Shown one piece after another: positions 2,749-13,105 of a DNA stretch of 31,404 nucleotides. How positions within the stretch are numbered: the stretch's first letter is position 1; every line of letters begins with the position of its first letter. Below the pieces are notes generated by a model, which did no database searches, was not told where the DNA came from, and saw only the letters and a program-made list of their open reading frames with translations. Source of the stretch: Spirochaetota bacterium (GTDB lineage Bacteria; Spirochaetota; Spirochaetia; DTKZ01); NCBI GenBank assembly GCA_029562045.1, contig JAKQWJ010000073.1, positions 1 through 31,404 on the forward strand. Direction: 5' to 3'. The position numbers were made by a program, and so were the translations under genes.

Positions 2749-3570
2749 ATGAATTACATCGAAAAAATGTTCGGCCTGGAAGGCAAGAATGTCGTCATCA
2801 CCGGGGGGGCGGGCGTCATCGCCGGAACCCTGGCGGAGGCTCTGGTCAGGGCGGGGGCGAAGGTCTGCCTCTGGGGCCGGGGAACCAACCACCCCGTGGC
2901 GGACGCGGTGAAGAAGGTCGCCGACGCGTCGGGGAAACCCGCCATGGTCTTCGGGGTCACGGTGGATACCGGGGTCGAGGAGGACGTCAGGAAGGCCATC
3001 GCCGAAACGGAAAAACTCATGGGGCCTCCCAATGTCCTCATAAACGGCGCCGGAGGAAACAAGGGCAAGGCGCCCTTCGTGGACCTGGACGTGAATCTTT
3101 TCAACGAGATCGTGGACATGAACATCCTGGCGGGGCTGGTGATTCCCACCAAACACATGGCCTCCTACTGGATCGGCAGGGGGATCAAGGGCTCCATCAT
3201 CAACATGACCTCCATGGCCTCCTACATCCCCCTTTCGGGGACCTGGGCTTACGGCGCGGCGAAATCCGCTACGCTGAACCTGACCATGGCCACCGCCAAG
3301 GAGTTCGCTCCCTACGGGATCCGGGTCAACGCGGTGGCGCCGGGTTTCTTCATCGGGCACCAGAACAAGGCTCTGCTCATCAAGAACGAGGCCACGGGGG
3401 AACTCACCGAACGGGGCAAGGCGGTGATCGGCCACACTCCCTTCGGCCGCTTCGGCAACCACGATGAACTGGCGGGGGCGACGATCTTCCTGATCAGCGA
3501 CGCCGCCTCGGGCTTCGTCACGGGCGTGTCGCTGCCGGTGGACGGAGGCTATCTCGTCCACAACATTTAG
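2749..3570 (+). CDS. uxuB: SDR-family oxidoreductase, probable D-mannonate oxidoreductase/fructuronate reductase (UxuB-like)
   Basis: TGGAGVIA Rossmann motif, INGAGGN, YxxxK (YGAAK), RVNAVAPGFF..QNKALL, GHTPFGRFG; adjacent to uxaC. Start at ATG 2749 after SD. Confidence 0.8.
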   Translation: MNYIEKMFGLEGKNVVITGGAGVIAGTLAEALVRAGAKVCLWGRGTNHPVADAVKKVADASGKPAMVFGVTVDTGVEEDVRKAIAETEKLMGPPNVLINGAGGNKGKAPFVDLDVNLFNEIVDMNILAGLVIPTKHMASYWIGRGIKGSIINMTSMASYIPLSGTWAYGAAKSATLNLTMATAKEFAPYGIRVNAVAPGFFIGHQNKALLIKNEATGELTERGKAVIGHTPFGRFGNHDELAGATIFLISDAASGFVTGVSLPVDGGYLVHNI

Positions 3571-3579
3571 GGGCACACC

Positions 3580-4992
3580 ATGAACAATTTCCTCGACGAA
3601 AACTTCCTTCTCGGCTCCGACACCGCCCGGGAACTGTACCACTCCTTCGCGAAGCCCATGCCCATCTTCGACTATCACTGCCATCTCCCCCCCCGGGAGG
3701 TGGCGGAGAACAAGAACTTCCTCAACCTCACGGACATCTGGCTGAAGGGGGACCACTACAAATGGCGGGCCATGCGGGCCGCGGGGGTGGACGAGAAGCT
3801 CATCACCGGGGACGCGTCGGACGAAGAGAAGTTCCTCGCCTGGGCCCGCACGGTTCCGAAAACCCTGGGCAATCCTCTCTTCTCCTGGACCCACCTGGAG
3901 CTGAAGCGCTACTTCGGAATCGAAGGCATGGTTCTTTCCCCCGACACGGCCCGGGAGGTCTGGGACCGGGCCAACGGGCAGCTGTCGGGTCCGGGCTTCA
4001 GACCCCGGGCCATCATGGAAAAGTTCCGGGTCAAGCTGGTCTGCACCACCGACGACCCCGCCGACGACCTGGCCTGGCACAGGATGGTGGCCGCCGACCC
4101 GTCCATGACGACCCGGATGCTCCCCGCCTACCGGCCGGATCAGGCCATGGACCCGGAAAACGCGGCGCGGTACAACGCCTACCTGGAAACCCTGGGGACG
4201 GCGGCGGGGCTTTCCATCAGGACCTTCGCGGATCTGGTGGAGGCCCTGGACAAACGGCACCGCTTCTTTCACGAAAACGGATGCCGCCTCACCGATCACG
4301 CCCTGGTGGTTCTCCCCACGGAATCCCTGTCCGCCGGGGACCTGGAGGCGGCCTTCCGGAAGGTCCGGGACGGGAAAAACCCCTCCCCCGCCGAAGCCGA
4401 CGGGATCCGATTCGCCGTGCTCCAGGCGGTGGCCCGGATGAACGCCCGCCGGGGCTGGACCATGCAGCTCCATCTGGGGGCGGTGCGGAACATCAACAGC
4501 CGGATGTTCGCCGCCCTGGGGGCCAACACGGGCTACGACGCCATGGGCGACGGGCCGGTGGCCACGGGACTGGTGAAACTCCTGGACTCCCTGGAGAAAA
4601 CCGGCGAGCTTCCCCGGACCATCCTGTACAGCCTGAACCCCCGGGACAACGAAGTTCTCCTTACCATAGCGGGAAGTTTCCAGGGGGACATCCCCGGCAA
4701 GATGCAGCTGGGTTCGGGCTGGTGGTACAACGACCAGAAGGACGGCATGGAGGAGCAGATGCGGACCCTGGCCAACATGGGTCTTCTGTCGGTCTTCGTG
4801 GGGATGCTCACCGACTCCCGGAGCTTCATGTCCTATCCCAGACACGAGTATTTCCGCCGGGTTCTCTGCGGGATCCTGGGAGGCTGGGTCGACGCGGGGG
4901 AGGCTCCCAGGGATCTGCGCCTCCTGGGAGGCATGGTGGAGGATATCTGCTACAACAACGCGAAAAACTATTTCCACATGTCCGTGGATTGA
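3580..4992 (+). CDS. uxaC: Glucuronate (uronate) isomerase
   Basis: PIFDYHCHL, GDHYKWRAMR, CTTDDP.D, WWYNDQKDGM, GMLTDSRSF.SYPRHEYFRR motifs. Confidence 0.97.
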   Translation: MNNFLDENFLLGSDTARELYHSFAKPMPIFDYHCHLPPREVAENKNFLNLTDIWLKGDHYKWRAMRAAGVDEKLITGDASDEEKFLAWARTVPKTLGNPLFSWTHLELKRYFGIEGMVLSPDTAREVWDRANGQLSGPGFRPRAIMEKFRVKLVCTTDDPADDLAWHRMVAADPSMTTRMLPAYRPDQAMDPENAARYNAYLETLGTAAGLSIRTFADLVEALDKRHRFFHENGCRLTDHALVVLPTESLSAGDLEAAFRKVRDGKNPSPAEADGIRFAVLQAVARMNARRGWTMQLHLGAVRNINSRMFAALGANTGYDAMGDGPVATGLVKLLDSLEKTGELPRTILYSLNPRDNEVLLTIAGSFQGDIPGKMQLGSGWWYNDQKDGMEEQMRTLANMGLLSVFVGMLTDSRSFMSYPRHEYFRRVLCGILGGWVDAGEAPRDLRLLGGMVEDICYNNAKNYFHMSVD

Positions 4993-5005
4993 AGGAGACT
5001 ACTCG

Positions 5006-6253
5006 ATGAAAAAACTGGAAAAATATTCCTTCGGCGTGGGGGACCGCTTCACCCGGCAGGGCAGGGCCCAGCTGGCGGCCCTCCTGGAGGCGAAAAAACT
5101 GGGGGTGGACATCGTTCCGGTATGGAACAAGTCCTTCCGGGAGCACTCGATCATTCACACCCAGCCCGACTCGGTCCGGGCCGAGGCGGACGCGGCGGTG
5201 AAGGCTCTGGGCTGGAAGAACGGGTACTACGTGGACGCCGACCACATCGGCCTGAAAAACGTGGACCTCTTCATCTCCGCCAGCGATTTCTTCACCCTGG
5301 ACGTGGCGGACTTCTCCGGGAAACCCGCCGACCAGGGGAGCGTCGCGGACTTCATCGCGGCGCACCGCAGGTATATCGGCAAGCTCCGGGTGGAGGGCAT
5401 CGATCATCCTCTGGACATCACCGAAGGGGTCATCGAAAGCGCCGCCCGGAAGTATCTGCTGGCGGTGCAGGAGGCGGGAAAGATATACCGCCATGTGGAG
5501 GCGAAGAAGGGAAAGGGGAACTTCATCACCGAGGTCTCCATCGACGAAACCGACGCGCCCCAGAGCCCGGTGGAGATGCTCTTCATCCTCTCCGCCGTGG
5601 CCAGGGAGGGGATCCCCGCCCAGACTGTGGCCCCCAAGTTCACCGGCCGCTTCAACAAGGGGGTGGACTATGTGGGAGACCTGGTCCAGTTCGAAAAGGA
5701 GTTCAACGAGGATCTGGCGATCATCGCCTTCGCCGTCCGGGAGTTCGGCCTGCCCGGGAACCTGAAGCTCAGCGTCCACTCGGGGAGTGACAAGTTTTCG
5801 ATATACCCCGCCATCCGGAAGGCCATCAAGAAGCGCGACGCGGGCCTTCATCTGAAAACCGCCGGCACCACCTGGCTGGAAGAGCTCATCGGCCTGGCCT
5901 GCGCCGGCGGCGAGGGGCTGGTCATCGCCAAAGAAGTGTACCGCAAGGCCCACGGCCGCTACGATGAGCTCTGCGGTCCCTACGCCTCGGTCATCGACAT
6001 CGACAAGACGAGGCTCCCCTCCCCGGACGAGGTGGACCTCTGGGACGAAAAGAAGTACTCCGAAACCCTGCGCCACGTGCAGTCCAACCGGAACTACAAC
6101 CTCCACGTCCGCCAGCTCCTGCATGTGGGCTACAAGGTGGCCGCCGAAATGGGAGACCGCTATTACCGGGCCCTGGAGGATCACGAGGAGGTCATCGCCC
6201 ACAATGTCACCGAGAACCTCTTCGACCGCCACATAAAACGGGTGTTCGTTTAA
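5006..6253 (+). CDS. uxaE: Tagaturonate/fructuronate epimerase (UxaE family)
   Basis: DADH, EVSIDET, KGVDYVGD, KLSVHSGSDKF and HLKTAGTTWLEE motifs; operon context with uxaC. Confidence 0.88.
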   Translation: MKKLEKYSFGVGDRFTRQGRAQLAALLEAKKLGVDIVPVWNKSFREHSIIHTQPDSVRAEADAAVKALGWKNGYYVDADHIGLKNVDLFISASDFFTLDVADFSGKPADQGSVADFIAAHRRYIGKLRVEGIDHPLDITEGVIESAARKYLLAVQEAGKIYRHVEAKKGKGNFITEVSIDETDAPQSPVEMLFILSAVAREGIPAQTVAPKFTGRFNKGVDYVGDLVQFEKEFNEDLAIIAFAVREFGLPGNLKLSVHSGSDKFSIYPAIRKAIKKRDAGLHLKTAGTTWLEELIGLACAGGEGLVIAKEVYRKAHGRYDELCGPYASVIDIDKTRLPSPDEVDLWDEKKYSETLRHVQSNRNYNLHVRQLLHVGYKVAAEMGDRYYRALEDHEEVIAHNVTENLFDRHIKRVFV

Positions 6254-6347: not shown

Positions 6348-7625
6348 TCAGGCGAGGCCGGACAGCAGAAAGGAGTACCCCGCCGCCACGCCGAAGACCA
6401 CCGCCGCGGGGCGGAGGATGCCCGCCAGACTGCTCATCAGATTGGTCTTGAAGTACTCGTTGGTCACGATGAGACAGACATGGATGGGGCTCAACATCAT
6501 CCCCAGAAAGCCGCTGGCGTGCCCCAGCACCACCATGGACAGCAGCGCCCCGGGTGCGGGATCGGCCCCGGCGAGGCGGAGGATGACGGGAAAGCTGGCC
6601 CCGATGTAGCCCACAGTTATGCCCGTGGTCAGGCCGCTGACGAAGGGGATCAGCACCACCAGGGCGACCACGGGAATCCCGAAGGTGTCCAGTTCCTCCC
6701 GGATGGCGTCCATCAGCAGGATGCCCCCGGGCATTTCGGATTCGATGAAGGCCCCATACACCCGGGCCAGGACGATGATGATCGCCAGGCTCAGGGTCCG
6801 TCGGGACTTCAGGACCCGCATCCAGACCTCCCGGGAGGAGGGCCGCTGGATCTGCAGGACCAGAATCCCGGAGAAGACACCGATCACCATGGGGAGGTAT
6901 TTATTGAAGGCCGCTACGGGCGGGGCAAGGATCAGGATAAGACCATAGACGACGATGACCGTCAGGGTGGGAAGGATCAGCGGCAGAAAGGCCTTCCCCG
7001 GTCCGGAGGGGCTGGATTCGGGCCGCACCTTCCGGAGCAGAAAGACATAGCCTGCCAGGAGGGCGGCGGCATACAGGGGGAGCATCATCACCACGAAGAA
7101 CCAGATGGGCAGCCCCGACAGGTCCACCGCCAGCAGCACCCCCGGGTAGAGGGGCCACCAGAACTCCCAGACATGGCGGAACCAGTAGTTGATCCTGACT
7201 TTTTCCATGCCGCTGAGATGGTTCTCCCGGTCCGCATCGTCCAGGAGGGGGGCGGAAAAGAGGGCCCCCGCGGGCATGGGGAGGAGCCCCACCACTCCGG
7301 GGAGTGCCGCCAGAGTGGCCCTTTTGGAGAGCCGGGTCCGCAGGCTGGACACCAGATCCTTCATCGTGCCCGCCTCGGACATCAGGGAACTCAACCAGAT
7401 GACCCCGACGATGATGAGGACCAGAAAGAAATTGTCCGGCGAAAAAGCCCGGGCCCCGGCCACCCGGGCCATGGACGCGGGGGAATGTCCGGTCCAGACC
7501 GCCAGAAGGACAATCCCCGCAGCCAGAGCAGTTTCGAGGCTTTTCGTGAGCTTCTGCACCGCCAGGATTCCCAGGAGGGAGGCGAAGACCCGCAGAATAT
7601 AGGGGACATGGGAAAATATTTCCAT
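6348..7625 (-). CDS. DUF401-family integral membrane protein (putative transporter)
   Basis: About 10-11 hydrophobic segments; LPGVVGLLPMPAGALFSAP, INYWFRHVWEFWWPLYPG and LSPIHVCL motifs. Confidence 0.85.
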   Translation of the reverse strand: MEIFSHVPYILRVFASLLGILAVQKLTKSLETALAAGIVLLAVWTGHSPASMARVAGARAFSPDNFFLVLIIVGVIWLSSLMSEAGTMKDLVSSLRTRLSKRATLAALPGVVGLLPMPAGALFSAPLLDDADRENHLSGMEKVRINYWFRHVWEFWWPLYPGVLLAVDLSGLPIWFFVVMMLPLYAAALLAGYVFLLRKVRPESSPSGPGKAFLPLILPTLTVIVVYGLILILAPPVAAFNKYLPMVIGVFSGILVLQIQRPSSREVWMRVLKSRRTLSLAIIIVLARVYGAFIESEMPGGILLMDAIREELDTFGIPVVALVVLIPFVSGLTTGITVGYIGASFPVILRLAGADPAPGALLSMVVLGHASGFLGMMLSPIHVCLIVTNEYFKTNLMSSLAGILRPAAVVFGVAAGYSFLLSGLA

Positions 7626-7712: not shown

Positions 7713-7741
7713 TTGACAAGCCCGCCGGGCCGGTCTAGGAT
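7713..7741 (+). promoter_or_regulatory. sigma70 promoter of the DUF2148 gene (leaderless geometry)
   Basis: TTGACA-17-TAGGAT, then 7 nt to ATG 7749; no SD. Confidence 0.8.
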
Positions 7742-7748
7742 TCGGGGC

Positions 7749-8276
7749 ATGAAATACGAGACACAGCATCTGGAAGGCGAGGAGGTCCTCGCCATCGCCC
7801 GCGCCGCCGCCGTGGCGGCGCGCACCGCACCCAAGGCCCGGGGGATCGACGACATCCTGACCCTGGTCCTCACGGGAGCGGAGAAGGACCGGCTCGCCGA
7901 CGAGGTCCTGCGGATCGGGGAGGAAAAAGGGATCGGCATCTTTGTCCGGGACTCGAAGAATCTCCGCGGCGCGGGGGCGGTCCTCCTGGTGGGGGTGAGA
8001 AACAAGGTCCGGGAGGTCCCGAACTGCGGGTACTGCGGCTACCCCGACTGCACGGCCAACGCCCGGGCGGGCGGGGTCTGCGCCATGTGCGTCACGGACC
8101 TGGGCATAGCCGTCGGTTCCGCCGCCTCCGTGGCCGCCGACCGCAGGGCCGACACCCGGGTGATGTTCACCATCGGCAAGGCCGCCCTGGGCATGGGACT
8201 TCTCCCCGACGCCGCGGCGGCCTTCGCGCTGCCCTTCACCATCGCCGGCAAGAACCCCTTCTTCGATCGGAAGTGA
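7749..8276 (+). CDS. DUF2148-family ferredoxin-domain (Fe-S) protein
   Basis: ARTAPKARG.D, RDSKN, NCGYCGYPDC, C...DLGIAVGSA and KNPFFDR motifs; start at ATG 7749. Confidence 0.88.
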   Translation: MKYETQHLEGEEVLAIARAAAVAARTAPKARGIDDILTLVLTGAEKDRLADEVLRIGEEKGIGIFVRDSKNLRGAGAVLLVGVRNKVREVPNCGYCGYPDCTANARAGGVCAMCVTDLGIAVGSAASVAADRRADTRVMFTIGKAALGMGLLPDAAAAFALPFTIAGKNPFFDRK

Positions 8277-8472: not shown

Positions 8473-8745
8473 TCAGACCAGTTCCACCGCCAGTTCCGGG
8501 AACTCCTTCTGAAACTCGCCGGCCAGTTCCCGCATCAGGCCCTGGCGCACCACGGCGGTCACCATGCCGGCGCAGAAGCATTTCTGCCGCGCCTCGGGGT
8601 GGCCCACCTCCACCAGGAGCCTCTTTTCCGCCGCGCCGTAACTCACCTTCCGGACCAGCCCCAGATCCAGAACGCTGAGCCGGGTCTCCGGTTCCTTCAC
8701 CTTCGACAGGACGAGATCAATCCGCCTTTTCATTTCCGGGTCCAT
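8473..8745 (-). CDS. DUF59 (SufT/PaaD/MIP18-like) small protein with a CxC motif
   Basis: V.EPE...SVLDLGLV matches the DUF59 DPE...DLGLV signature; SD AAGGAGG; last gene of the cstA operon. Confidence 0.75.
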   Translation of the reverse strand: MDPEMKRRIDLVLSKVKEPETRLSVLDLGLVRKVSYGAAEKRLLVEVGHPEARQKCFCAGMVTAVVRQGLMRELAGEFQKEFPELAVELV

Positions 8746-9391
8746 CGGGGGAACCTCCTTTCAGGAAAAAAGGCTTCAATCCGGACAGGACGGACTCGAG
8801 GGTTTCGCCGAACCGGTCCTTTACCGGCCGCAGATGCAGGAAGAAATTCTTGTTGTCCGCGTAGCAGCAGAAGTGGCGCAGGTGTTCGGGGTTCCGGATC
8901 TTTTCCAGAAGTTTCCTGAGTTTTTCGTCCATGCCTCCGCGGTCCCACAGGAGAACGAAGGTTTTTCCGTCCCGGGACACCGTTTCCCGGTTCAGCCCGT
9001 CGAAGCCCGCCACGGCGTTCCGGGCCCGGGACAGGTAGGACTGGGACACGATGTGCCCCTCCCCGGCGAGTTTTCCATCGGCGTAGAGCTGCAGGAAATA
9101 CTTGTCGTAGCGGTTTATCAGCAGGGAAATGGGCATATAGAGCACCGACTGCCGGGGCAGCAGGGTGAAGGTCCCCTTGGCTTCCCGATAGGGCTTCGCC
9201 AATTTATAGACGAAGTTGTACCCGATGGTGCCGCCGAAATTGACGTAATCGGTGTCCCGGGGCTTGAAAACCTCTTCGGCCTCCCGGCTTATCCAGCCGG
9301 AGATCCACCTGTTTTTCTTTCGTCCCCGGAAGTACCCCAGGGTGGAAAACAGCCCCAGGGCGATGAGCGGAATGATGTACTGCTGGTCCAT
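8717..9391 (-). CDS. Single-pass membrane protein, 224 aa, with by-eye similarity to the CCDC47/DUF1682 core
   Basis: True start ATG 9391 (SD GGGGAG) just after the ArsA stop. N-terminal TM YIIPLIALGLFSTLGYF, then the basic stretch RGRKKN and a soluble alpha/beta domain. The CCDC47 similarity is an inference (see findings). Confidence 0.8.
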   Translation of the reverse strand: MDQQYIIPLIALGLFSTLGYFRGRKKNRWISGWISREAEEVFKPRDTDYVNFGGTIGYNFVYKLAKPYREAKGTFTLLPRQSVLYMPISLLINRYDKYFLQLYADGKLAGEGHIVSQSYLSRARNAVAGFDGLNRETVSRDGKTFVLLWDRGGMDEKLRKLLEKIRNPEHLRHFCCYADNKNFFLHLRPVKDRFGETLESVLSGLKPFFLKGGSPDGPGNEKAD

Positions 9392-9399
9392 GTGCTCCC

Positions 9400-10320
9400 C
9401 TATGTTCGCCCGATCAGGTCGTTCTTGAGGTCCTCCACGTCGATCCGGGCAAGATCCTCCGCCCCCCGAACCCCGTCGGGGAGATGGAAGGAGGTGAAAA
9501 CCGGAAATCTCCGGAAACTGTCCTCGACTTTTTCCTTGCATGCCCCTTCGTCGGGGGCCTTGTTCAGGCAGACGCTGTCGATCCGGACCTCCAGCTTTTC
9601 CAGCTCGTGCCGGATCCGCAGGGCCTCCGCCAGGGACAGATCGTCGGGATTGACCACCACCGTGAGGTAGCTCTCCTCCTGAAAAATGCGGTGCAGCCCG
9701 GTGAGCCGGCTGCGTATCCCCGACAGCCGGGAATAGATCCGGTCCTCGTCTTTTTTCACCGCCCCCCGCACCACCGAGGCTTCCGGGTTGAGCCGCAGGA
9801 CAGTCTGCCTCTTCTCCAGAATCTTCTCCCGCATCCCTGTCAGTTCCCGGACCCACATCAGGGAGATGGACGGCATGGCCAGGAACCGCAGGGTCAGCGC
9901 CGTGGGAGGAGTGTCGAAGACGATCAGGTCGTAGTCCTCCCGGTGCTCCCGGTGGATGTGTTCGATGGCCCAGAGGACGGCGTACTCCTCGGTGCCGGGG
10001 GAATACTTCAGGATGTTGATGTAGGAATCCAGGTTGATGGTGGCATGGTATCGGTAATTCTCCCGGATCTCCTCCCGGCTCTCCTTCAGATAGCGGGACA
10101 CCCAGGCCGCCAGATCGATCTCGATGCCGTCCAGCCGGGGCCCCAGGGAAGTCCGGGCATCGGTCAGCCGCGCCCCGAACACGTCCCCCAGGTTATGCGC
10201 CGGGTCCAGGGACACGATGAGGACCTTCCTCCCCTCCCGGCTGATCTGGCTGGCGACGGATGACGATATGGTGGTTTTTCCCACACCACCCTTGCCGAGA
10301 AAGAACGCGAGCTTTTTCAT
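9400..10320 (-). CDS. Single-domain ArsA/Get3(TRC40)-family ATPase
   Basis: Deviant Walker A GKGGVGKTT, switch I DPAHNLGD, SPGTEE, switch II DTPPT..TLRFL, SLAEA.R. Confidence 0.93.
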   Translation of the reverse strand: MKKLAFFLGKGGVGKTTISSSVASQISREGRKVLIVSLDPAHNLGDVFGARLTDARTSLGPRLDGIEIDLAAWVSRYLKESREEIRENYRYHATINLDSYINILKYSPGTEEYAVLWAIEHIHREHREDYDLIVFDTPPTALTLRFLAMPSISLMWVRELTGMREKILEKRQTVLRLNPEASVVRGAVKKDEDRIYSRLSGIRSRLTGLHRIFQEESYLTVVVNPDDLSLAEALRIRHELEKLEVRIDSVCLNKAPDEGACKEKVEDSFRRFPVFTSFHLPDGVRGAEDLARIDVEDLKNDLIGRT

Positions 10321-10329
10321 GCCTTCCCC

Positions 10330-10623
10330 CTAATCCACATGCAGCATGCCCATGACGGCCCCCAGCGGGTCCTGGGCGAAGTCGGCCCGGGAAACCATCA
10401 GGCCGATCTCGTCCTCCATGAAAGGCAGAAGCTCCATGGCCATGGCCGCGGGGGGTGATGGAAGGCCGATGAAACTTCCCAGGAGCAGGATGACGAAGAT
10501 GTTCTCCATCTCCTTGACCTCGAACTCCAGCATGTCCGTGGCCTTGTCCCGGTTGACCTGGACGACGACCTTCCAGAACTTCCGGACGAAATCCCAGGCT
10601 TTATGCAGGACACCCTCACGCAT
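10330..10623 (-). CDS. 97-aa CstA-associated protein (distant cory-CC-star-like), Met-rich
   Basis: SD GGGAGG. The core EMENIFVILLLGSFIGLPSPPAAMAMELLP resembles the E.EDLFML...E.LGIPNP....LELLP core of small proteins encoded between cstA and arsA-like genes. Confidence 0.78.
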   Translation of the reverse strand: MREGVLHKAWDFVRKFWKVVVQVNRDKATDMLEFEVKEMENIFVILLLGSFIGLPSPPAAMAMELLPFMEDEIGLMVSRADFAQDPLGAVMGMLHVD

Positions 10624-10677
10624 CGAGAATCCTCCCGGGGCAAGAATGACAATTTTTCCCTTTTTCGTCCAGAGACG

Positions 10678-10710
10678 AAAAAGCCCGCGCGACGCTGCCG
10701 CCGCGCGGGC
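10678..10710 (-). terminator. Intrinsic terminator-like hairpin directly after cstA
   Basis: Minus strand GCCCGCGCG-10 nt loop-CGCGCGGGC-TTTTT. Confidence 0.7.
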
Positions 10711-10737
10711 CCGAATGCGGATTTTACCGGGAAAGGA

Positions 10738-12438
10738 TCAGGCCTTCGCTCCGGCGACGGCCTTCTTTCCGAAGTTTTTCAGGAACTCGTAGATCATGAA
10801 GAAGTTGAGCCCCAGCATGACCACGTTGATGGTCCCCACGGCGGACCCGGTGATGACGTTCTTGATGTTCGCCATGTCTTTGAAGAAGGTCGGAACGATG
10901 ATGAGCATGTACCAGATGATGCCCACGGTGACGGTGACCCACAGCAGGACCGCGGGGATGAGAACCAGGTTCGTGTACTTCTCGTTGAGCTTCTTCTTGA
11001 CCCACATGGCCGCGGTGAGCATGACGATGGAGGCGATGAGCTGGTTGGCGCCGGAGAAGGCCGGCCACAGGACGTTGTAGTTGCCGCTCCAGGCGAGGCC
11101 GATCCCCAGGAAGGCCATGATCAGGGACGCGATCCATTTGTTGGCGAAGAAGCTGTAGGCGGCGGTGTTTTTCTCTTTCAGGGGCAGGGCCAGCTCGCTG
11201 ACGATGTAGCGGCCCAGCCGGTTGGTGGTGTCCAGCGTGGTGAGGGCGAAGGACGAAACCCAGATGGCCGCGAAGAGGGTCATGAACTCCTTGGTCATGA
11301 ACGGGAAGGCGTGGTTGACCATGGCCCCGAAGCTCTGGGTGAAGCGGGGAATGGCTCCGGTCTTCAGGACCGTGGCGGTGTCTTTGAAGGCCAGCAGGCC
11401 GAAACCGGCGATGGAGATGACCACGATGGTGGACAGGAAGCCCTCGGTGAGCATGGAGCCGTAGCCGACGAACAGGGCGTCTTTTTCATCCCGGAGCTGT
11501 TTGGAGCTGGTTCCGGAGGCCACCAGGGAGTGGAAACCCGACAGGGCGCCGCAGGCTATGACCAGCGGGACGGTGGGCCAGAAGGGGGAGGGCTGTCCGC
11601 CGATGACCTTGGCGCTGAAACTGGTATACACCGGGATCGCATCGAAGCTTTTCATGGTGACGACCGCCGCGATGCCTCCGACAACGATGCCGAAGTACAG
11701 AAGGAAGGAGTTCAGGTAGTCCCGGGGCTGCAGCAGGATGTTCACCGGCATGGCCGAGGCGATGACGATGTACAGGAAGATCACCGCGAACCAGATGTTT
11801 TTGCTGGCCTTGATCCCGTAGGTTCCGCCGAGCCAGAAGGCCCCGATGAGAAGGACGATGCCCACCAGGGTGCTGATCCCGACCCCCAGCTTGGTGTTGT
11901 ACATCAGGTATCCCAGCAGGACGGCGGCGGCGCAGAACAGGAAGAATGTGGACGCCACTTCCCCGCTTCCGCCGGCAAACTGACCCGCCACGATGTCGCC
12001 GAAAGCCGCCACCACCAGGATGCAGAGGAACAGAATGAACCAGGCGAAGGACTTTCCCGCGCCCTTGCCCATGAGGTCCTGGGCCACGAACTGCACCGAC
12101 CGTCCGTCGTAGCGCACCGATGCGGTCAGGGCCAGGTAGTCGTGGATGGCGCCGATGAAGATGTTGCCGAACCAGATCCACAGAAGCCCCGGCAGCCACC
12201 CCCAGGCCACCGCCAGGGCGGGTCCGGTGATGGGCCCTGCGCCGGCTATGGACGCGAAGTGGTGACCGAAAAGAACGTACTTGCTGGTGGGGACATAGTC
12301 CACCCCGTCGGAGAGGCGTTTAGACGGGGCCTCCGGCGCCTCGTGCGACCGCAGCAGGTTGGTCTGGATTTTTCTTCCGTTGACGAAATAAAAAACCAGA
12401 TATATCGCCAGGGCGATAACAGCAATTAAAGCACTCAT
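10738..12438 (-). CDS. cstA: Carbon starvation protein A family transporter (peptide/pyruvate)
   Basis: DGVDYVPT, VLFGHHFASIAGAGPITGP, QPRDYLNS, IACGALSGFHSL.ASGTSSKQL, YGSMLTEG, TTLDT..RLGRY, LWP.FSGANQL. Confidence 0.96.
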   Translation of the reverse strand: MSALIAVIALAIYLVFYFVNGRKIQTNLLRSHEAPEAPSKRLSDGVDYVPTSKYVLFGHHFASIAGAGPITGPALAVAWGWLPGLLWIWFGNIFIGAIHDYLALTASVRYDGRSVQFVAQDLMGKGAGKSFAWFILFLCILVVAAFGDIVAGQFAGGSGEVASTFFLFCAAAVLLGYLMYNTKLGVGISTLVGIVLLIGAFWLGGTYGIKASKNIWFAVIFLYIVIASAMPVNILLQPRDYLNSFLLYFGIVVGGIAAVVTMKSFDAIPVYTSFSAKVIGGQPSPFWPTVPLVIACGALSGFHSLVASGTSSKQLRDEKDALFVGYGSMLTEGFLSTIVVISIAGFGLLAFKDTATVLKTGAIPRFTQSFGAMVNHAFPFMTKEFMTLFAAIWVSSFALTTLDTTNRLGRYIVSELALPLKEKNTAAYSFFANKWIASLIMAFLGIGLAWSGNYNVLWPAFSGANQLIASIVMLTAAMWVKKKLNEKYTNLVLIPAVLLWVTVTVGIIWYMLIIVPTFFKDMANIKNVITGSAVGTINVVMLGLNFFMIYEFLKNFGKKAVAGAKA

Positions 12439-12477
12439 TCAATCCTCCTACATTGTATCTTGTGGTATCGCTGCCGA

Positions 12478-12506
12478 ATTCTACGCTCCTATTCACCAAT
12501 TGTCAA
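12478..12506 (-). promoter_or_regulatory. sigma70 promoter of the cstA operon
   Basis: TTGACA-17-TAGAAT on the minus strand, about 40 nt upstream of the ATG with SD AGGAGG. Confidence 0.85.
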
Positions 12507-12524
12507 GGAAATCATTCCGCCCTG

Positions 12525-12613
12525 TTTTCCCCGCGCCGGGAGGCCCCCGCATACGTTTAAACCCGAAAAACAATCCCGGCACTTCTCTTTTTCCCGCGCC
12601 GGGGGGCCCCCGC
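12525..12613. repeat. Two near-identical ~25-bp direct repeats in the cstA/ndk divergent intergenic region
   Basis: TTTTCCCCGCGCCGGGAGGCCCCCGC (12525-12550) and TTTTCCCGCGCCGGGGGGCCCCCGC (12589-12613), starts 64 bp apart. Confidence 0.8.
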
Positions 12614-12652
12614 CCCCTTGCGGCATTCCATATTTTCAGGAAAACTGTCGCC

Positions 12653-13105
12653 ATGGCAATGGAACGGACCTTCGTGATGCTGAAACCCGGGACGCTGCAG
12701 CGCCGGATCCTGGGAGAACTCATCTCCCGGTTCGAACGCAAAGGGCTGAAGATCGTCGCCCTCAGGCTGACCCGGATGTCCCCGGAACTCTGCGGGCTCC
12801 ACTACGCCGAACATCGGGACAGGGACTTTTTTCCGGATCTCACGGCATACATGACCTCCGGCCCCGTCCTGGCCATGGCCCTGGAGGGGGAATCCGCCGT
12901 CACCGCGGCCCGCGGTCTCTGCGGCCCCACCCAGACGGAGACGGCTCCTCCGGGAACGATCCGGGGGGACTTCGGGGCCCGGACCCGGAAAAACATCGTC
13001 CATGCCTCGGATTCGCCGGAAAGCGCCGCCCGGGAGCTGGGCCTGTTCTTCTCCCCTGAAGACTACCATAATTGGGAGGACGACAATGCCCGATGGTTCG
13101 TCTAG
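12653..13105 (+). CDS. ndk: Nucleoside-diphosphate kinase
   Basis: ERTFVMLKP, SGPV.AM.LEG, PGTIRGDF, KNIVHASDS (phospho-His). Start ATG 12653 (alternative 12659). Confidence 0.97.
   Translation: MAMERTFVMLKPGTLQRRILGELISRFERKGLKIVALRLTRMSPELCGLHYAEHRDRDFFPDLTAYMTSGPVLAMALEGESAVTAARGLCGPTQTETAPPGTIRGDFGARTRKNIVHASDSPESAARELGLFFSPEDYHNWEDDNARWFV

Follow-up and report, generated by a model that had tools for sequence, protein, structure and literature searches.

Whether a bacterial genome can encode a relative of CCDC47, a subunit of the eukaryotic PAT complex, is the question raised by a small gene on contig JAKQWJ010000073.1 of a Spirochaetota bacterium (GenBank assembly GCA_029562045.1). The window analysed here is the whole stretch of 31,404 nucleotides (nt), and the gene lies on its minus strand between positions 8717 and 9391. 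The original prediction, an alignment made by eye, had proposed that the encoded protein is homologous to CCDC47. We find here that the open reading frame is real, with a translation of 224 amino acids (aa) that contains all four strings quoted in that prediction, and that the protein is a bacterial CstY, a new member of a published, uncharacterised family. The unit formed by its transmembrane helix and its globular domain is, judging by the predicted structure, most probably related by true, if remote, homology to the core of CCDC47, the part covered by the Pfam family PF07946 (DUF1682), and the idea of CCDC47 homology was supported. The features of the gene and of its product are the following.

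8717..9391, minus strand: cstY gene, 224 aa (open reading frame and translation; the stop codon is included in the coordinates).
9326..9379, minus strand: N-terminal transmembrane helix of CstY, approximately residues 5-22 (sequence; within the continuous helix 3-42 of the model).
9311..9334, minus strand: juxtamembrane motif Y20-x2-G23-R-K-K26-N27 of CstY (conservation; profile register with CCDC47 Y153-x2-G156-x2-K159-N160).
8756..9265, minus strand: putative cytoplasmic alpha/beta globular domain of CstY, residues 43-212 (domain-only AlphaFold2 model; superposes on the DUF1682 domain of CCDC47).

The protein begins with the transmembrane helix, continues with the basic juxtamembrane motif and a domain of approximately 170 aa, and ends with 12 residues past the domain that are disordered according to sequence and model. 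Since the four residues ahead of the helix are non-basic and the helix is followed by RGRKKNR, the positive-inside rule suggests a reverse signal-anchor with N-out/C-in topology. The globular domain would be cytoplasmic and placed at the membrane surface. A signal peptide and an acidic lumenal domain are absent, with only 4 residues preceding the helix, and so are the C-terminal coiled-coil latch helices. This agreed with the architecture described in the original prediction, a transmembrane helix and core domain lacking the acidic N-terminal domain and the latch helices.

The main evidence came from the predicted fold. AlphaFold2 modelling of full-length CstY from a 47-sequence alignment (pLDDT 90.7, pTM 0.83) resulted in one long helix (residues 3-42) that comprises the transmembrane and juxtamembrane parts, a beta-rich alpha/beta domain and a disordered 12-residue tail. 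The model was compared by Foldseek with 350,542 PDB chains, with E ≤ 1e-3 as the level of significance. Exactly three chains were matched at this level and all of them were CCDC47: 7tm3_4 (E 7.1e-9, TMq 0.65), 9i78_4 (E 1.2e-7, TMq 0.64) and 6w6l_7 (E 2.1e-5, TMq 0.53). The best match other than CCDC47 had an E of 0.014 and a TM-score of 0.17. As a control for the long helix as the driver of the match, residues 43-212 were modelled alone with 112 trimmed homologues (pLDDT 94.5), and again only the same three chains were significant, 9i78_4 with E 1.5e-5 and TMq 0.70, 7tm3_4 with E 4.0e-5 and TMq 0.63, and 6w6l_7 with E 4.7e-4 and TMq 0.58. Outside CCDC47 the domain-only model reached an E of 0.028 and a TM-score of 0.20 at best. 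The chains 6w6l_7 and 7tm3_4 are CCDC47 by PDB chain name, with a 483-aa sequence. The entry 9I78 is the Chaetomium thermophilum SND3 translocon, in which ctCCDC47 was modelled over residues 76-447 (9I78 paper), and 9i78_4 was identified as CCDC47 because the chain of 371 residues fits this range. The check on the fold that had been set beforehand therefore came out in favour of the prediction: the predicted CstY fold superposes specifically on the cytosolic domain of CCDC47, also when the domain is taken alone.

In the ESM Atlas the top neighbours of CstY were unnamed bacterial and archaeal clusters (TM-score 0.85-0.91). The first named neighbour was a fungal DUF1682/PF07946 cluster, with a TM-score of 0.74 for the full-length model and of 0.80 over 168 residues for the domain. 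Weaker neighbours, with TM-scores of 0.54-0.62 overall, were TtfA (PF28092, 0.58-0.61), DUF3137 (PF11335) and a Prok-RING_1-associated cluster. All of these are prokaryotic and have an N-terminal transmembrane helix and a predicted alpha/beta fold, and the models hint that the CCDC47 core has a wider superfamily of prokaryotic proteins around it. In the feature space of the ESM Atlas, proteins of approximately 250 aa also form a Heimdallarchaeota-rich cluster close to the CstY domain (score 0.86), which we regard as a lead only.

A second line of evidence came from sequence profiles. We used 93 diverse members of the family, 20-55% identical to the CstY of the window. PF07946 was the sole Pfam family that recurred among these distant members, matching 39 of the 93 with a best E of 6.2e-5, while the runner-up family matched 5 of the 93. 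Among the close members it was matched by 5 of 47. Most of the alignments placed protein residues ~8-60 on profile positions 6-50, that is, the transmembrane helix and its exit. Some extended further: residues 15-116 of one relative (P0169) aligned to profile positions 7-124 with 20.9 bits, the alignments of two others (P0149 and P0215) reached approximately profile position 100, and in a fourth (P0212) residues 78-121 lay on profile positions 75-126, wholly inside the globular part.

The relationship was also approached from the opposite side. Two CCDC47 fragments were scored without gaps against a hidden Markov model (HMM) of the 93 CstY members, and 3000 shuffles scored at any offset served as the null. 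Both fragments had been quoted in the original prediction and turned out to be exact, the first (YIIGKNKNSRLAQAW) being residues 153-167, within 151-171 of the PDB CCDC47 sequence, and the second, of 28 letters, residues 222-249 of the same sequence. The juxtamembrane fragment paired Y153 with Y20, G156 with G23, K159 with K26 and N160 with N27 at 16.1 bits, a score equalled by 3 of the 3000 shuffles, so that the family-invariant G23 and N27 of CstY fall on G156 and N160 of CCDC47. The register expected for the similarity at the exit of the transmembrane helix was thereby recovered. The second fragment (the RQ block) was likewise non-random, with 15.2 bits and 1 of 3000 shuffles, and its best register placed D229 on D96. 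In their best registers both fragments lie at an offset of +133, resulting in a gapless correspondence of CstY 18-116 with CCDC47 151-249. The register that had been claimed, with R227-Q228 on R80-Q81 and D243 on D96, ranked only third with 6.9 bits. The Pfam alignments of the relatives, however, need 8-16 deletions against the eukaryotic profile across the RQ-block stretch, and eukaryotic proteins that are 8-16 residues longer there fit the R227-Q228/R80-Q81 register better. Secondary-structure propensity would also favour this register. The two candidate registers, D229 or D243 on D96, are therefore left side by side.

Several results weigh against homology. The CstY of the window itself gave no Pfam match at E ≤ 10 and no NCBIfam match in hmmscan, and PF07946 had no match in the source genome in a whole-genome search. 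Not one of the individually inspected relatives reached the Pfam gathering cut-off of PF07946, which is 27.7 bits, the best value being 20.9 bits. Of the profile match expected in the original prediction, the recurrence of PF07946 in the family was thus borne out, but at scores below the threshold and with no match for the window's protein. When residues 1-42 were removed, 0 of 112 CstY domains matched PF07946, and we concluded that the signal of this HMM resides mainly in the transmembrane and juxtamembrane part. The support that sequence comparison gives to homology of the globular domain is thin. Searches of PDB sequences with CstY-family profiles gave nothing at E ≤ 10 for the profile A1 and two chance matches (E 1.3 and 8), neither of them a CCDC47 chain, for the profile A2. 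In addition, the CstY side of every structural comparison is a predicted model.

These results bear on the alternative that survives best, in which the likeness to CCDC47 arose by convergence or goes back to a small alpha/beta fold of a generic kind and CstY is a membrane-anchored ligand-binding or enzymatic domain. Its near-invariant R80, D96, E111, H113 and H173 could then make up a site for a metal or a small molecule, which senses a substrate and regulates the neighbouring ATPase or carrier. The lack of PF07946 signal in globular-domain sequences alone is in line with such a view, as are the identity of only 9-13% in the structural alignments of Foldseek, the observation that the conserved polar residues of CstY are not obviously kept in the CCDC47 fragments checked, and the appearance of the fold in the DUF3137, TtfA and Prok-RING_1-associated proteins. 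The fold is rare, however, with CCDC47 as the only match among all PDB chains searched and the next TM-score at ~0.2. An identical N-terminal transmembrane helix stands directly ahead of the domain, the juxtamembrane motif was picked up both by the Pfam HMM and by the reverse profile test, and some Pfam alignments run into the globular domain. Since the fold is rare, the architecture identical and the juxtamembrane motif common to both, common descent is the better reading. We hold with considerable confidence that CstY and the CCDC47 core share a common ancestor, and regard convergence as unlikely. The description that best suits the CstY family as a whole is that of a CCDC47 core in minimal prokaryotic form.

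The gene does not stand alone. It is part of a five-gene module that spans positions 8473-12438 of the window, with the following further features in the order of transcription.

12478..12506, minus strand: sigma-70-like promoter TTGACA-17-TAGAAT upstream of cstA (11 of 12 consensus matches; consensus match only).
10738..12438, minus strand: cstA, multipass transporter of the CstA family, 566 aa, at the head of the operon (PF02554, E 1.4e-127; conserved synteny).
10681..10712, minus strand: 14-bp GC-rich hairpin, 11 of its pairs being GC, with a T-rich run after it, within the 114 nt that separate cstA from cstX (sequence).
10330..10623, minus strand: cstX, DUF7990-type small protein, 97 aa, a short hydrophobic segment followed by PSPP (ESM Atlas feature match of 0.96 to PF25952 DUF7990 clusters).
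9400..10320, minus strand: single-domain ArsA/Get3-family P-loop ATPase, 306 aa, directly upstream of cstY (PF02374, E 3.9e-49; TIGR00345 GET3_arsA_TRC40, at 170 bits above the cut-off of 135).
8473..8745, minus strand: DUF59/FeS_assembly_P-like small protein, 90 aa, optional fifth gene (PF01883, E 7e-4, below cut-off).

The Get3-family ATPase gene, directly behind which cstY had been noted to lie, is therefore present at the position claimed. The ATG of cstY at 9391 lies 8 nt past the TAG stop codon of the ATPase gene and has a GGGGAG stretch a short way ahead of it. The DUF59-like gene begins inside the end of cstY, with an overlap of 29 nt, and AAGGAGG lies 7 nt before its ATG. The hairpin between cstA and cstX is possibly a partial terminator or attenuator that would keep the dose of the accessory genes below that of the carrier. 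The genes that flank the module are unrelated: a DUF2148 ferredoxin-domain protein (7713-8276, plus strand), a DUF401 membrane protein (6348-7625, minus strand) and a nucleoside diphosphate kinase (12500-13105, plus strand). A role in arsenic resistance was rejected, as the operon (8473-12506) holds only cstA, cstX, arsA, cstY and the DUF59 gene between unrelated flanks, in agreement with Castillo & Saier 2010.

CstX homologues at other loci carry PF25952, and the CstX of the window has a weak match to the NCBIfam entry cory-CC-star. The NCBIfam relative is named for a C-terminal CC, which is absent in the CstX of the window. CstX/DUF7990 was also found near bacterial clusters that combine PF25952 with PF07766, the LETM1 ribosome-binding domain (ESM Atlas score 0.86), and near eukaryotic LETM1 fragments (0.84). 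We take this as no more than a lead, and the Pfam scan gave no match in any of 24 CstX proteins.

The same gene association has been published. CstY was described in 2010 as a protein of approximately 210 aa with a single transmembrane segment in five archaea, T. kodakarensis among them. Its gene clusters with those of CstA, CstX (~90 aa) and an ArsA homologue of approximately 300-330 aa that has a single domain (Castillo & Saier 2010, Int J Microbiol 2010:187373, PMC2963123). The four proteins were reported to co-evolve, and the ArsA homologue was proposed to supply CstA with energy, CstX to act as the coupler and CstY to be a possibly non-essential auxiliary; clusters of cstA, cstX and arsA that lack cstY were reported in many organisms (Castillo & Saier 2010, PMC2963123). 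Since this published cstA-cstX-arsA-cstY association matches the operon of the window, we identified the protein as CstY. Its size class, single transmembrane segment and gene cluster are the same, and the archaeal loci of the present family (Thermococcus, Archaeoglobus, Ignisphaera) share their gene order with the clusters of 2010. Judged by size, transmembrane segment, context and taxa, we infer that the two families are identical. The earlier paper differs in that it covered five archaea only and reported no fold or relatives, whereas here the family is found also in bacteria (at least six named lineages) and has a CCDC47-like fold. The CstY family and its operon association have thus been known since 2010, and what is new is the link between CstY and CCDC47. 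In a literature search we found no paper that connects CCDC47 or DUF1682 to any prokaryotic protein.

We examined the conservation of the module in a synteny sample of 29 loci, 28 fetched loci and the window, which was obtained by iterative searches with the window's own proteins. The loci with an organism name belong to Thermoprotei, Thermococcus, Thermoplasmata, Archaeoglobi, Caldisericota, Nitrospirota, Thermodesulfobacteriota, Bacteroidales and Spirochaetota. In 23 of the 29 loci, the window included, the genes stand in the canonical order cstA-cstX-arsA-(DUF59)-cstY, and all four genes (cstA, cstX, arsA and cstY) are present in 25, the two beyond the canonical 23 being rearranged. Two loci (L005 and L028) kept all genes and had an extra cstY copy upstream of cstA, and in L007 all genes were present with cstA inverted. 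The short contig L006 contained only cstY with a divergent cstA fragment, and in three loci (L010, L016 and L020) the module was cut by contig ends. The ATPase gene was found in 27 of 29 loci, directly upstream of a cstY copy in 26, and DUF59-like homologues of approximately 90 aa were detected in 13. Stop and start codons often abut or overlap within the module. In the loci with an extra copy the two CstY paralogues are encoded at 5001-5636 and 8795-9496 (L005) and at 3043-3732 and 6874-7581 (L028); one copy lies upstream of cstA, and the other comes after the gene for the ATPase. One protein of 323 aa (P0270) joins a C-terminal part of the ArsA ATPase (PF02374, residues 7-107) to CstY (residues 136-318). 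This fusion may be real; a read-through artefact of overlapping genes is more likely, because a fusion conflicts with the N-out topology of CstY.

An exhaustive phmmer search with CstY against 1.84 billion representatives gave 191 clusters at E ≤ 1e-3. Approximately 140 close homologues (140 or more) were all annotated as 'hypothetical' and came chiefly from Spirochaetota (Treponema, Rectinema, Gracilinema, Sediminispirochaeta). The relatives of CstY are 200-240 aa long. Across the 93 diverse members G23, N27, G53, G57, P79, R80, P87, D96 and H113 were at least 90% conserved and H173 of the domain was mostly conserved; the consensus motifs are Y-x2-G-R-+-x-N, Y-T-x-I-G-G-x-x-G-Y, T-L-L-P-R-Q-S-L-L-Y-L-P-I-S, R-x-D-R-L and G-E-x-H. 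Spirochaete CstY proteins contain H-F-C-C at residues 172-176 (8864-8878 of the window, minus strand), with C175 at least 90% conserved in alignment A1, where the wider family has H-x-A. Archaeal loci were found in Thermoproteales/Thermoprotei, Ignisphaera, Thermococcus, Thermoplasmata and Archaeoglobus (Archaeoglobi), and bacterial ones in Caldisericota, Syntrophaceae, Thermodesulfovibrio and other Nitrospirota, Thermodesulfobacteriota, Bacteroidales, Sphaerochaetaceae and Alkalispirochaeta. The gene is single-copy in the source genome. Only 17 of 301 Spirochaetota genomes carry cstY (12 of 246 among the high-quality ones), and the gene is therefore a patchy accessory gene in this phylum.

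What could such a protein do beside a carrier and an ATPase? Because of the strict linkage to cstA, the tight coupling of the genes and the patchy distribution, we consider it rather probable that CstY is a CCDC47-core homologue acting as a dedicated subunit of CstA, CstX and the ATPase. It would belong to a conserved, horizontally mobile module of cstA, cstX, the ArsA/Get3-family ATPase gene and sometimes the DUF59-like gene. CstY might reside in the membrane beside CstA and CstX, with its cytoplasmic domain serving the ATPase dimer as a membrane-anchored platform for docking or coupling, and nucleotide cycling could thereby be linked to transport or gating by CstA or to the assembly of CstA. 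Membrane docking of ATPases of the ArsA/Get3 class is known from the pairs ArsA-ArsB and Get3-Get1/2. A precedent for a single-pass protein of similar predicted fold on a multipass transporter is TtfA, an essential accessory subunit that binds the multipass transporter MmpL3 (Fay et al. 2019, PMC6593404). To be set against a dedicated subunit is that no contact of CstY with a partner was obtained in a complex prediction (ESMFold2; two copies of ArsA with CstX and CstY), whose ipSAE of 0.01 against a mark of 0.32 is neither support nor counter-evidence. A general role in the translocon or in membrane biogenesis is unlikely for CstY, given the strict linkage to cstA and the patchy distribution, and a general housekeeping insertase was rejected on the number of Spirochaetota genomes that carry the gene.

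A variant of this general idea is restricted to the module itself. CstY, CstX and the Get3-like ATPase could form a PAT/GET-like device that inserts or assembles CstA or CstX, with CstY as the receptor or as the scaffold of an intramembrane chaperone, as CCDC47 is for Asterix. The CCDC47-like fold and topology of CstY argue for such a device, together with the adjoining ATPase of the GET3/ArsA/TRC40 family, the small hydrophobic partner CstX that is always present and the strict co-occurrence with one multipass client, CstA. Against the device stand the missing latch helices and ribosome-binding tail of CstY, a putative lack of the Get3 CxxC and a putative variant switch II in the ATPase, the low share of Spirochaetota genomes with the module and the complex prediction, which gave no support. 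CstA-type carriers elsewhere, such as E. coli CstA and BtsT, also function without the CstY module. No Asterix (PF03669) signal was found in the source genome at E ≤ 10 (genome 83% complete), and as 0 of the 24 CstX proteins matched PF03669, CstX was rejected as an Asterix homologue at the sequence level. We consider the device quite improbable.

Doubtful to a further degree is an evolutionary extension, in which CstY would be the prokaryotic ancestor-type of CCDC47. The archaeal module might then be a primitive, client-dedicated assembly machine in which an ATPase of Get3 type is combined with a scaffold of CCDC47 type and a small partner inside the membrane. The core could later have been freed in the Asgard/eukaryote lineage, gained a K/E-rich ribosome-binding tail and joined the PAT complex and the multipass translocon. 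Prokaryotes are stated in the literature to lack PAT components, and the ancestor-type reading, if true, would overturn this statement. Finally, that CstY is a passive, non-essential auxiliary which stabilises the transporter complex and does not interact with the ATPase would fit the clusters without cstY reported in 2010 and the complex model with no confident ATPase contact, but is very improbable given the adjacent and often overlapping arsA and cstY genes in the sampled loci and the strong conservation of CstY with invariant polar residues, which points to a specific activity or interface.

The comparison with known systems defines what a dedicated CstY subunit of the module would share with them. 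CCDC47 (calumin; a subunit of the PAT complex and the multipass translocon; PF07946) and CstY both have a single transmembrane helix directly before a cytoplasmic alpha/beta domain, the same predicted fold and the juxtamembrane motif Y-x2-G-x2-K-N, which reads Y153-I-I-G156-K-N-K159-N160 in human CCDC47. Unlike CCDC47, with its 483 aa, CstY has 224 aa and lacks the signal peptide, the acidic lumenal domain and the C-terminal latch coiled coil; it has no detectable Asterix partner, is patchy in distribution, is encoded in a transporter/ATPase operon and stays below the Pfam threshold. The latch helices of CCDC47 contact the ribosome and Sec61 (9I78 paper), and from its sequence CstY is not expected to associate with the ribosome or SecY. 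TtfA resembles CstY in its N-terminal transmembrane helix, its cytoplasmic domain of approximately 180 aa and its similar predicted fold, and its first 205 aa are required for binding to the multipass transporter (Fay et al. 2019, PMC6593404). It differs in that Pfam scans detected no sequence similarity to CstY, in its partner, an RND transporter, in having no link to an ATPase and in its restriction to Actinomycetota. Get1/Get2 (WRB/CAML) and ArsB are membrane docks for the ArsA/Get3-family ATPase dimer, which is the role that CstY might take, alone or with CstX; CstY has no similarity to them in sequence (Pfam) or fold (Foldseek), and the single complex prediction gave no support for docking.

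If the likeness to CCDC47 were only convergent, CstY would still be a conserved, uncharacterised accessory protein of a transporter. The predicted fold offers the first structural handle on the CstA/ArsA-homologue module, predicted since 2010, and the cst module may be a new way in which an ATPase of the Get3/ArsA type is coupled to a secondary carrier. The multipass translocon of the endoplasmic reticulum has CCDC47 among its core parts, and what the globular DUF1682 domain of CCDC47 does is not understood (2022, PMC9630114). A compact prokaryotic version of the CCDC47 core, consisting of the transmembrane helix and the domain only, would give this core a testable evolutionary origin, and among the archaea that carry it are genetically tractable ones such as Thermococcus. 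CstY may thus serve as a minimal system for learning what a CCDC47-type domain binds.

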